From positions 434,001 through 498,000 of the forward strand of contig OX597835.1 of assembly GCA_951406725.2 (NCBI GenBank): a stretch of DNA of 64,000 nucleotides, given 5' to 3'. A program made the translations under genes and the position numbers. Within the stretch, counting starts at the first letter, position 1. Each line of letters starts with the position of its first letter. A model generated the notes under the pieces. It was given only the letters and a program-made list of their open reading frames with translations, was not told where the DNA came from and made no database searches. Below, piece after piece: positions 34,101-40,100 of this stretch. This stretch comes from Octopus vulgaris (taxonomy: Eukaryota).

Positions 34101-37100
34101 CTGACGAGGCCTTGGGATATATATATAAGCAACTCATTTATAACGGCATATTACCTTTATACACCTGACTAATATGAACATAATGAGTTACTCTTATCTA
34201 CATGGCTGAAACAGCTGTAAGATCCATTTATATCTATATTTATTATTATGTATTGTTATGGTATTATCTTACTCATTGATGTGTACTGTTTTATTCTGTT
34301 TGATCTGGATGTTCCTAAATAATTAGTTAATAAATTATATGAATTGGTATTATTTAGTAGTTGATGATTGATTAAAATCTATTCCTCCATTTTCTTATTT
34401 TGTATTATGAATTTGAGGTAAAACATTTTACCTTCGCCCATATAATACAATAAATGAATTAATTGCATTGCAATTCTTAGCATTTATGTATTAGCATTTC
34501 TGGGTACTTTACTGGCAGCATATTGGATAAATGTTATCCCATAGTAGGTTACACTCACAACCCCTATCTCACTTTGTAATTATATATATATATATATATA
34601 TATATATATATATATATATACACATATAATAATAATATTAGGGAGTAAATCCAAACTTACAGGGAAAAATTAGATTTAGGATTAAATCTAATTTTATAGT
34701 ATAAATATATATATATTTTTTATATTAAATTGGAGATAAAAGCACTATTAGGCAAATCAAACAGTGAAAATCATAAACCAATACATAGAAATAAAATTAA
34801 TTAATAAAAAATATATAAAATATAAAATTCAAAATTTAAATTATTTAAATTAAAAGTTAAAATTTTAAAAAATATTCAAATTAATAATTCATACTTATAA
34901 ATTTAAATATATATATATATATATATATATATATATATATATATATATTATTGTTATTATTATTATTATTATTATTTTTTAAATATATATAACTATCAAA
35001 AAGTATTAAAAGTTTAATATAAGATAAAGAGTAAAACCACTACGATCGTTTCATGCCCATAAACCAATTCAAATAACAATAATTTAAATTCAATTAATAA
35101 TTCAAATAATGGTTATAATCAATCTTCAGGTTAATTATATTATTTAAATAAATAATCAGAAATATTTAAACAATATTTTTTAAGAAATAAATAAAATAAT
35201 AATTTTTCTTATAAAAAAACTCTATTATCAAACTAGAAACTTAACAATTATGATTATGTGATACAATCGATTATAATGTTAAATATTAATTTTTAAGGTA
35301 AAAAACCCACAAATAATCTAATATCAGTTATAGTCAATATCTAATTACATGCATATTTTACAAAAAAAATTTTTTTTAATGACTATTCATATTATTAAAT
35401 ATAATTTCAAGTCAATTAATTATATAATATTTGAATAATAAATAAATTATCAATGAAAATATATAAATGTATATAAATATTAGAATTAAGATCTAAAATT
35501 ATCTCTATCAATAAATATATATGCATGTATAATAAAGACCTAATAAATTAATTATTCATTATTACTTATAAAAATATTAAAAGATTAAAAGATTAAAGAT
35601 GAAATAGCTAATTGTAAAAAAACAAACAATCTTAAACGAACGCTATAACAAATTAACGTACTATATATCTCTTTGGCTAACTAATAATATAGAGTTTGGT
35701 AAGTTTTAATTTTCAAAGTATAGAAAATTCTTTTATATTGATAACTTATTCTATTATAGAACAACGTATTTGATCTATCGATATATTAATTTACCTATTT
35801 AATTAGATTAATTTATTATTGATTAGTATCTATTTTGAGTATTAATAATATGATATATAATATATATATATATATATATATTTATCTGATAATAGAGTTA
35901 AGTTTATATTTTGTTATATTTCTGTTATAAATTTGTTAAATTAATCTATATGTATGTAATCTCTTTATATTTGAAATAGATTTATTTAGATGTTTATTTA
36001 ATATAGAAGTATAGATTAGTAAGATAGAATAAATGAATAAAACTAAATGTTTACCTGTATGCTTGTATGGAAGTATGAATATAGGCATTTATATACGTAT
36101 TTATTCATATGATATATGTGTATGTGTGTGTGTATGTGTGTGTATGTATGTATATATATGTATATGTACGTGTATATATATGTATATGTATATATATTTA
36201 TATATGTTTGTGTGTGTGTATATATGTGTATTTGTGTATTTGTATGTATTGTGTATTGTGCGTATATATATATATATATATATATATATATATATATATA
36301 TATATATATGTATATGCATGCACAGTTATACCTCACATTATGAGAAGTGTTTTACGAGACAATGGTTTTGATCACGAGTTTTAGCTTATAAATAAAAGAG
36401 TAATTTGGGAAAGAATTTAATAGTATGTCGAGGGGTTACTATAATTTTTTTATATATTTATTAATCATATAAGATTTTTAGAGTATACATAATAATTAGT
36501 AGTTTTTAATTATTTAATTTATTTAGTATTAAGTATTATTTATCATAGTTATTTTAATAATAAATCTTATAGTATAGAGTGATTCTATTCTTTATTTGTG
36601 ACTTCATTCTATTTACATTTATTGATAAACCATAACTGTTTCCATTCACAATTTTCATTGATAAAGCGTATTTGTAGTTCCTCACGTTTAAAGAATTCTT
36701 CAACAATTTATTCTTTTTTTACTAATAACGTAATTCCACGAGTATTCTTATTAACGCTGTAAAGATGTTTTCCGATTTAAAATTTTAGTTCATCACAAAA
36801 CCTCACAAAGCTAAGTATATATTGATATTTAAGATTTTTAAATTTTAAAATTTAAATATTTTAATAAGTCTTATGGTATGATATTGTTTTATAAATATTG
36901 ATGGTTATGTAATGATCTAATTATCGTAATTTTTTCTATATAATTATTAGATATTAACTTTACGTTTATTTGTAAGACTTTACTTAGCCAAAGAGATATA
37001 TAGATCTTTAACACTTATACGAGTTTTTTAAAATTAGGTTTCATGTATATACATGTATTGATAGCATAAATTTTAGTCATAAATAACTATATTTGTTGAT

Positions 37101-40100
37101 AGTTATTTTAAATTTCTTATAATTGTTATTATAACTTGTATATTGTTTTTTTAAATCGATAATTGGTAGCAATATTCTTCCCATTGATAAATACTTTTGT
37201 AGTATTTATGTGATACTATTTAACTACGGATTGATTATTTCATTAAGTATTTTATTATTCTATTTTAACTATACGAGTTTTGAAAGTTATTAGTTTGCCA
37301 AAGAGATATATAGTACGTTAATTTGTTATAGCGTTCGTTTAAGATTGTTTGTTTGTTTTTTTACAATTAGCTATTTCATCTTTAATCTTTTAATCTTTTA
37401 ATATTTTTATAAGTAATAATGAATAATTAATTTATTAGGTCTTTATTATACATGCATATATATTTATTGATAGAGATAATTTTAGATCTTAATTCTAATA
37501 TTTATATACATTTATATATTTTCATTGATAATTTATTTATTATTCAAATATTATATAATTAATTGACTTGAAATTATATTTAATAATATGAATAGTCATT
37601 TAAAAAAGTTTTTTTTGTAAAATATGTATGTAATTAGATATTGACTATAACTGATATTAGATTATTTGTGGGTTTTTTACCTTAAAAATTAATATTTAAT
37701 GTTATAATTGATTGCATGACATAATCATAATTGTTAAGTTTCTAGTTTGATAATAGAGTTTTTTTATAAGAAAAATTATTATTTTCTTTATTTCTTAAAA
37801 AATATTGTTTAAATATTTCTGATTATTTATTTAAATATTAACCTGAAGATTGACTATAACCATTATTTGAATTATTAATTGAATTTAAATTATTGTTATT
37901 CGAATTGGTTTATGGGCATGAAATGATCGTAGTGGTTTTACTCTTTATCTTATATTAAACTTTTAATACTTTTTGATAGTTATATATATTTTAAAAAAAT
38001 AATAATAATAATAATAACAATAATATATATATATAAATTTATAAGTATAAATTATTAATTTAAATAATTTTTTTAAATTTTAACTTTTAATTTAAATAAT
38101 TTAAATTTTGAATTTTATATATTTTTTATTAATTAATTTTATTTCTATGTATTGGTTTATGATTTTCACTGTTTGATTTGCCTAATAGTGGTTTTATCTC
38201 TCTAATTATATATATATATATATATATATATATATATATATATATATATATATATATATATATATATATATATATAAGCGCAGGAGTGGCTCTGTGGTAA
38301 GTAGCTTGCTAACCAACCACATGGTTCCGGGTCAGTCCCACTGCGTGGCAACTTGGGCAAGTGTCTTCTGCTATAGCCCTGGGCCGACCAATGCCTTGTG
38401 AGTGGATTTGGTAGACGGAAACTGAAAGAAGCCTGTCGTATATATGTGTGTGTATATGTTTGTGTGTCTGTGTTTGTCCCCCTAGCATTGCTTGACAACC
38501 GATGTTGGTGTGCTTACGTCCCCGTCACATAGCGGTTCGGCAAAAGAGACCGATAGAATAAGTACTGGCCTTATAAAGAATAAGTCCCGGGGTCGATTTG
38601 CTCGACTACAGGCGGTGCTCCAGCATGGCCGCAGTCAAATGACTGAAGCAAGTAAAAGAGTAAAAGAGTAAAGAGTAAGAGTATATATATATATATATAT
38701 ATATATATATATATATATATATGACGGGTTTCTTTCAGTTTCCTTCTACCAAATCCACTCACAAGGCTTTGCTCGGTCCAAGGCTATAGTAGCAGCAAAT
38801 GGGGATGAAAGAAGAGGAGACAGGTCCAAATGAATATGAAATATTCAGAGTACAAACTTTTGTCTTCTGGAAATATTGGTCAGTCTGTTGTTATTTAAGT
38901 TGCTTTTGTGGCTAAATTTGTCTAAGAAGTTCGAATAATTAATGGTTCCATCTGGATTTTTGTAGACCTGCAGTAAAAGAAACAAAATAGATAATGAGCC
39001 TCATAATCATCATTATCAACATCACTACCACCATCACCAACAACAATAACAACATCGTCTTTACCACCATCACCAACAACAATAACAACATCGTCTTTAC
39101 CACCATCACCACCATCACCAACAACATCATCTTTACCACCATCACCAACAACAATAACAACATCGTCTTTACCACCATCACCAACAACAATAACAACATC
39201 GTCTTTACCACCATCACCAACAACAATAACAACATCGTCTTTACCACCATCACCAACAACAATAACAACATCGTCTTTACCACCATCACCAACAACAATA
39301 ATAACATCGTCTTTACCACCATTACCAACAACAATAACAACATCGTCTTTACCACCATCACCAACAACAATAACAACATCGTCTTTACCACCATCACCAT
39401 CATTCTCCTCGCCAACCCCGACACCATCATTTACATAGTTTATATAATTGCAAAAAACGTTGCTTGACCCTTATTATTGAGAAAAGTAACATAAAACTGA
39501 CCTTACTAATAATGTTTTCAAACACAGTGTCGGAAATATGTCCAAAGAACATCTCGATAACCTTTCGGAAATCTTTTACTTTGACTGAACAGTTCTTCTT
39601 TGTGTCAAAATATTTAAAACTCTTGCAAAAAAAAAAAAAAATATTGGATTTAATAACATTGATAACACACACACACATGTATGCATACATTTACATACAT
39701 ACATACACACATAGATACATACATACATACATACATACATGTGTATGCGCACGCACGCACACACTGGCCTACACTCATGGGCACAAACAAACAAAAGAAT
39801 ACAGCTTGGATAACAGAGTCTCAATGAGTACTGAAAAGGTTGCAAGACACAACGAAAATTTTAGGAAAAATAAATAAATGAGTGGAAACTTTACCAGTGA
39901 GTGTGTTAAATAATAAGGCACTAAAAGAGAATGACTCTCCCCAGACACAACTATCTCTCTCTCTCTATATATATATATATATATATGATGATGATGATGA
40001 TGATGATGATGATGATGATGATGATGATGATGATATATATTAATATTTAGCAGAAGTAACAGAGTGATTCAAAGTCTGAGAGTTTTATACTGGGACCTTG

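Follow-up and report, generated by a model that had tools for sequence, protein, structure and literature searches.

We analysed a 64,000-nt stretch of the Octopus vulgaris genome (assembly GCA_951406725.2, contig OX597835.1, positions 434,001 to 498,000 of the forward strand), here called the window, in which an intron of a gene similar to that for EF-hand calcium-binding domain-containing protein 6 (EFCAB6) contains an extremely AT-rich element with two long inverted arms. The element was best explained, with a probability of roughly 0.7, as a single insertion of a non-coding, non-autonomous Penelope-like element (PLE) together with an inverted copy in the (TA)n of this octopus intron. A PLE-derived insertion is well supported by the combination of architecture, (TA)n target, a hammerhead core like that of the Hydra clade and a published near-twin, Penelope-13_HM. 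As no open reading frame (ORF) for reverse transcriptase (RT) and GIY-YIG endonuclease is present, the element falls outside the Hydra clade proper and works like a passenger of that clade, which is most likely its status today. No account of this octopus element was found in the literature searched, a search that left out Repbase, Dfam and subscription papers.

Layout and polarity of the element

The two inverted arms are 977 nt (left) and 920 nt (right) long, and of the 982 columns of their global alignment 897 were matches and 19 mismatches, the other 66 being gap columns from 8 gaps, corresponding to a divergence of ~2% by substitution over 916 aligned bases (Table 1). They are separated by a spacer of 1,599 nt. 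GC content was 17.3% for the element and 14–15% for the arms, against 36–40% in the flanks and 36.1% in the window, and tandem-repeat detection placed (TA)n arrays on both sides (34581–34628 and 38207–38276). The arms of ~0.95 kb, the spacer of ~1.6 kb, the extreme AT content and the (TA)n on either side given in a preliminary description of this locus were all recovered.

Table 1. Features of the element and its host intron (positions in the window; + and − denote strand)
Feature	Position	Strand	Basis or remark
Host intron of the EFCAB6-like gene	25133–38857	−	13,725 nt; GT-AG taken from sequence
Left (TA)n run, presumed target site	34581–34620	.	Part of tandem-repeat array 34581–34628
One-sided left-end extension	34621–34732	−	No right-arm partner; taken as a putative long PLE-type tail
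Left arm, inverted 5′-truncated copy of the body's 3′ end	34711–35687	−	Arm alignment; skew opposite to the remaining element
Type I hammerhead-like motif, left	35041–35129	−	Core intact, CUGAAGA-U ... U-GAAAC-GAUC-GUA; 70-nt helix II domain; 2-bp helix I
Main body, unique 5′ segment	35688–37286	+	Non-coding; T/G-rich on plus strand, as right arm
(TG/TA)n tract inside unique body part	~36101–36320		Tandem-repeat detection
Older direct repeat of 37248–37321	36937–37011	+	76% match across 75 nt, with an exact 17-mer
Right arm, last 920 nt at the body's 3′ end	37287–38206	+	Arm alignment
Second hammerhead-like motif, right	37843–37931	+	GAAAU variant with a more stable helix II; antisense in host pre-mRNA
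Right (TA)35 run	38207–38276	.	Followed by a dispersed SINE-like repeat

The element had also been described as a foldback with two inverted arms. The inverted arms stand, but they are not terminal. At the left end 90–110 nt (34621 to 34710–34732) have no partner in the right arm, several differences between the arms fall in the outer 30 nt, and clean arm identity begins at 34733. This left extension carries a perfect 13-bp hairpin (~34665–34694) and a short TA run. The AT skew of the spacer and right arm was −0.11 to −0.27 (T/G-rich) and that of the left arm +0.15, with the minimum of the cumulative keto skew at 35657, 30 nt off the left arm's inner end, and the older direct repeat (Table 1) crosses the inner end of the right arm. 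Because the spacer shares the skew of the right arm, the left arm has the opposite skew and the direct repeat runs across the right arm's inner end, 35688–38206 is a single plus-strand body of 2,519 nt, to whose 5′ end the left arm is joined as an inverted copy. A body with an inverted truncated copy is a better reading of the arms than a symmetric pair. When six sub-segments were aligned pairwise, the internal direct repeat alone exceeded shuffled sequences (1/30 comparisons), and evidence for direct copies, looked for as a direct pseudo-long-terminal-repeat or a partial tandem copy, was limited to this repeat.

An inverted 5′-truncated copy adjoining the 5′ end, with a tail of 30–40 bp at one end, is described as the typical PLE insertion (PMC8557442); the preliminary description had noted that PLEs often form inverted pseudo-long-terminal-repeats when they insert. 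The element has the inverted 5′-truncated copy at the body's 5′ end and (TA)n on both sides, the empty site not having been seen, and its one-sided extension of 90–110 nt with a short TA run may correspond to the published tail. Penelope-13_HM (3,045 bp) has an inverted copy at 1–966 and hammerheads at 2944 in sense and 102 in antisense orientation (PMC8557442); the octopus element likewise consists of a body and an inverted 5′-truncated copy (966 nt there, 977 nt here) with outward-facing hammerheads on opposite strands. Naiad and Hydra PLEs target (TA)n (PMC8557442), and Hydra-1_Obim from Octopus bimaculoides, also in (TA)n, is 2,507 bp long (Craig et al. 2021, PMC8557442), similar to the 2.5-kb body found here.

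The lack of a recognisable ORF noted earlier was confirmed. All stop-free frames of more than 60 codons in the element were microsatellite read-throughs, and the six frames of the body had 57–93 stops per 839 codons each, with no single ORF for PLE RT and GIY-YIG endonuclease. The arms are only 2% apart, yet no trace of an ORF is left, and so the body was probably non-coding at insertion, barring gene conversion between the arms. Putative non-autonomous PLEs of the Chlamys group, e.g. MRC1, are a precedent for non-coding PLE derivatives with the 3′ end of a coding family, although MRC1 is from a green alga and another clade and has a known partner family, with none known here (PMC8557442). Animal non-LTR (long terminal repeat) retrozymes are also non-coding, have a type I hammerhead and are presumed to be mobilized by PLEs (PMC7229834; bioRxiv 10.64898/2026.07.22.740005). 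Their consensus lengths are 51–972 bp in direct tandems (bioRxiv 10.64898/2026.07.22.740005, whose supplements could list longer families), unlike the single 2.5-kb body with an inverted copy observed here, and tandem-repeat detection found no array of short direct units over the hammerhead motif.

Under the proposed mechanism, RT and GIY-YIG endonuclease would have been supplied in trans by a coding PLE, which most likely belonged to the Hydra clade that targets (TA)n. The endonuclease would have cut the microsatellite, and reverse transcription on the element RNA would have been primed from both target ends, with one cDNA reaching 2.5 kb and the other ending at ~1 kb. Joining of the two unequal cDNAs would leave outward-facing 3′ ends. 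PLEs have been reported to cut both strands at AT-rich targets and to extend both, with internal RT start sites yielding the tail (PMC11167929). As the layout has been described before, a PLE specialist would not find the locus by itself surprising; it is the long, very AT-rich body that is unusual. The element is nevertheless a clean case of a non-coding RNA that seems to have been inserted with all the marks of a PLE, suggesting that its 3′ kilobase carries the cis signals.

Hammerhead motifs in the arms

One hammerhead-like motif was found on each strand, both pointing outward, the left one sense and the right one antisense in the host pre-mRNA. Hammerhead numbering and search patterns followed the consensus, checked against PMC4209133 and PMC8557442. 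The left motif reads CUGAAGA, 70 nt, GAAAC-GAUC-GUA and the right motif CUGAAGA, 70 nt, GAAAU-GAUC-GUA, the right copy having lost one C. The preliminary description had assigned a CGAUCG-type hammerhead to each arm; an outward motif is indeed present in each, but CGAUCG only in the left, with UGAUCG in the right, and both are degenerate.

Dinucleotide-shuffled versions of the left arm contained the strict two-half core in 0/5000 and 3/5000 cases (halves at most 200 or 120 nt apart), and shuffles of the left arm with the spacer in 6/2000 and 7/2000. The 70-nt domain folds to a hairpin that joins the core halves, as it did in 35/1000 (left) and 28/1000 (right) shuffles. All three differences between the arms within the motif exchange G·U and G-C, a small sample. 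Helix I has two contiguous pairs in both motifs, and the ribozyme fold lies 13.7 (left) and 8.8 (right) kcal/mol above the minimum-energy fold, compared with 3.3 to 14.5 kcal/mol for five other folded motifs.

The U·U at the base of helix II was considered as damage and rejected, being the commonest Hydra-clade form in file S2 of PMC8557442. By our own count of that file, it accompanies the CUGANGA-U / U-GAA core, also that of the element, in 14/25 Hydra-clade families, and the stem tgcc/ggca is present in 8/25; the element's helix II stem, tga(c/t)/ggca, is one or two changes from the latter. The axolotl hammerhead HHR_Amex2 shares the U·U and has a 2-bp helix III with a tetraloop, as here (PMC7229834), whereas metazoan PLE motifs are described with a highly conserved G10.1-C11.1 pair (PMC4209133). 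Unlike in Hydra-clade PLEs, helix I is 2 bp, and the motif starts ~380 nt from the 3′ end, compared with 87–210 nt in most Hydra-clade families and 425 nt in one. The Penelope hammerhead of Drosophila virilis also combines a helix I of 2 bp with a short, palindromic helix III and a long, bulged helix II, but sits in a coding element (PMC4209133). PLE hammerheads alone cleave poorly (PMC4209133), and that of an Anolis PLE depended on protein, while in vitro insertion did not require this hammerhead (PMC11167929). To judge from its sequence, the motif is probably a genuine PLE-type hammerhead that is weak or inactive.

The 11-mer TAGTGGTTTTA at 37929–37939 covers the predicted cleavage site and recurs at 38186–38196, close to the 3′ end of the right arm, which may be chance.

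Contrary evidence and alternative origins

A number of results weigh against a PLE insertion. The (TA)n at both ends masks any target-site duplication, which was unreadable, the extension is longer than the published tail, and the 17% GC content lacks an explanation. Gene conversion between the arms could mask an older age. Within the 64-kb window neither a coding parent nor, by self-comparison, a second copy of the element was found, so that the non-autonomous PLE derivative proposed in the preliminary description, although favoured by architecture, (TA)n, core and the Penelope-13_HM near-twin, is not proven. The endonuclease and RT relics of the window itself did not align with the element (shuffled queries scored as high in 128 and 38 of 200 cases), its 3′ region did not convincingly resemble four other hammerhead relics (the scores were reached by 5, 10, 182 and 198 of 200 shuffles), and ten short DNA motifs of the element were absent from the supplement of PMC8557442, in which line breaks may hide matches.

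The hammerheads contribute further points of this kind. The 70-nt helix II domain contrasts with loops of 3–10 nt in Hydra-clade PLEs (PMC8557442, file S2), and looser core patterns occurred in 68/5000, 143/2000 and 37/3000 shuffles (~1–7%). The helix II energy of the left copy was ordinary (422/1000 shuffles), that of the right copy low (17/1000). An Rfam scan of the whole window at E up to 1 gave 126 matches and no hammerhead, and a scan of the right arm and its motif copy at E up to 10 likewise gave no hammerhead match. A control motif at 23756–23840 reached 19.9 bits, where the gathering score is 34; Rfam is thus weak for such long-helix-II motifs, yet it places the element's motif below the control.

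Some of these observations, namely the missing ORF, the decayed ribozyme, the older 76% internal repeat and the lack of another copy in the window, would also fit an old relic of a single PLE whose 3′ kilobase was later duplicated in inverted orientation by local template switching or break repair. We consider this unlikely, as the copy terminates where the element's 3′ end lies and points outward into (TA)n, in the manner of published PLE insertions, and as the same layout is seen again at 25.2–25.4 kb in another family.

The asymmetry of the element bears on a non-autonomous cut-and-paste DNA transposon with long terminal inverted repeats (TIRs), foldback or Mutator-like, inserted at TA with a chance or captured hammerhead. 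Inverted repeats of ~0.95 kb near both ends of an AT-rich element in (TA)n suit such an origin, and TIRs can be longer than 1 kb (PMC8969392). Here, however, the inverted repeats do not reach both termini precisely: the ends are the least matched part, where 90–110 nt of the left end have no match and the outermost 30 nt differ at several positions. The skew is that of a body and an inverted copy and not of symmetric arms, and the strict hammerhead core is rare by chance and of the Hydra-PLE type, making a TIR transposon improbable.

An assembly artefact, with inverted joining of two haplotypes or of a chimeric read, would be an even poorer explanation. The ~2% substitution and the differences in microsatellite length could fit two alleles, but the window contains no N, the 13 exon matches of the host gene are collinear on one strand, and the duplication is confined to the element's own boundary, with 1.6 kb of unique spacer between the copies.

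Searches for foreign sequence were negative. The stretch 36854–36612 (minus strand) appears protein-like by eye, and was rejected as a gene relic: its peptide gave a best Pfam E of 0.024, 0/15 candidates in the homologue search and 0 matches in 1.84 billion representatives, and it was not found by two 5-residue words in the supplement of PMC8557442, where protein lines are broken. Nor was it poorer in stops than expected, with equal or better stop-poor stretches in 152/500 shuffles of the spacer. A ciliate-code reading was likewise rejected, since long frames were then open throughout AT-rich DNA and nothing was singled out. A tRNA scan and the Rfam scan for rRNA found none, and phage and plasmid searches with 36321–38206 gave no match; one 22-mer was shared with bacterial genomes, at chance level (0.14 expected). 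Foreign AT-rich DNA from an organelle, parasite, symbiont or small linear replicon with inverted ends, whether integrated or mis-assembled, is suggested by the GC content of 17% against 36% in the window and by the protein-like stretch, but with no tRNA, rRNA, phage or plasmid match, a chance-level 22-mer and a peptide that has no homologue and ordinary stop-poverty, it is the least credible origin of those considered.

Host intron, predicted double-stranded RNA and other repeats

An exon-like ORF in the window matched the EFCAB6-like protein of O. vulgaris and O. bimaculoides. The gene was mapped to the minus strand at 929–42587 by 13 exon matches (≥60% identity), in order, covering residues 81–603 of 1,290, with several matches 96–100% identical to the O. 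vulgaris protein. Residues 604–1290 fall outside the window, and no exon for residues 1–80 was found at 42.6–64 kb, leaving at least 21.4 kb upstream with no mapped exon. The element had been placed in the gene's largest intron; among the 12 introns that the 13 exon matches delimit, its intron is the largest, which is narrower than a statement about the whole gene. A 36-nt tandem repeat (39026–39399; 10.4 copies, 95% matches) occupies a 0.5-kb intron between two exons.

Since a single intron contains both arms, a ~0.9-kb intronic double-stranded RNA (dsRNA) is a sound prediction. In the minus-strand pre-mRNA the right arm would be transcribed first and would then pair with the left one, giving a duplex of ~0.9 kb with a predicted energy of −1155 kcal/mol. 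Around the hammerhead motif the predicted energy was −251 kcal/mol for the duplex against −30 kcal/mol for the self-fold. Long duplexes of this kind are typical ADAR substrates. The duplex should accordingly be open to ADAR and should bury the single sense hammerhead, which is itself marginal. On the pre-mRNA strand the two arms contain 348 + 454, about 800, adenosines, which would lie in a duplex that is 98% matched. The outer end of the duplex is 651 nt from the splice donor. No exon match lies between the arms, which therefore give no ground for expecting back-splicing.

The hyper-editing rate of octopus is exceptionally high (O. bimaculoides, PMC5625713), and the ubiquitous editing of squid is located on repeats in introns and 3′ untranslated regions (PMC9068888). 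If inserts such as this one were common, they would link PLE biology to cephalopod repeat editing. A bolder and doubtful extension is that the element belongs to a recently active, multi-copy family of long (at least 2.5 kb), ~83% AT, non-coding PLE passengers with a hairpin-extended helix II, each planting a kilobase of dsRNA in octopus pre-mRNAs. Were it true, these passengers would be several times longer than the described animal retrozymes, and twin-primed PLE insertion would be one source of octopus long dsRNA and hyper-editing.

Other PLE-like traces were present in the window. Six hammerhead cores were counted, whereas 60 shuffles contained 0.57 on average and never more than 3. At 25200–25395 a miniature foldback of another family consists of two head-to-head copies of ~75 nt with outward hammerheads (25270–25241 minus, 25290–25319 plus), to which a tail of ~35 nt containing a hairpin is added on one side only; it lies 70–260 nt from the splice acceptor at 25133, and its core resembles that of Hydra-2_aMil (PMC8557442, file S2). 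The best-formed hammerhead of the window (23762–23834, minus strand) has G10.1-C11.1, a 6-bp helix II, a GUC site and a helix I of 4 + 7 bp; it is a weak Rfam Hammerhead_1 match, is sense in the EFCAB6-like pre-mRNA and adjoins a (TA)43 run. On these sequence features it is the best candidate for an active intronic ribozyme in the window. Another, distinct hammerhead relic (34101–34219, plus strand), whose helix II domain measures 100 nt, continues downstream to the element's own (TA)n, which suggests repeated PLE insertion at one microsatellite.

A GIY-YIG-like endonuclease relic at 19369–19650 (minus strand) had an Atlas score of 0.96 to a GIY-YIG fragment cluster, with no Pfam or sequence match and 0/29 candidates in the homologue search; its visual likeness would place it in the Hydra clade. 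About 850 nt downstream on the same strand there is a hammerhead core (18439–18512). A short peptide at 58398–58500 (plus strand) resembles, by eye, the thumb region of Hydra-clade PLE RT. The dispersed repeat beside the element, similar to a short interspersed element (SINE), spans 38277–38680 and has copies near 3615, 18061, 29564, 52269 and 55073, often adjoining (TA)n. Relics of transposases (PF01498, PF01359) and of an RT (PF00078), together with a DUF7083 match, were found at 4129–4518, 6400–7157, 40973–41437 and 46926–47255.

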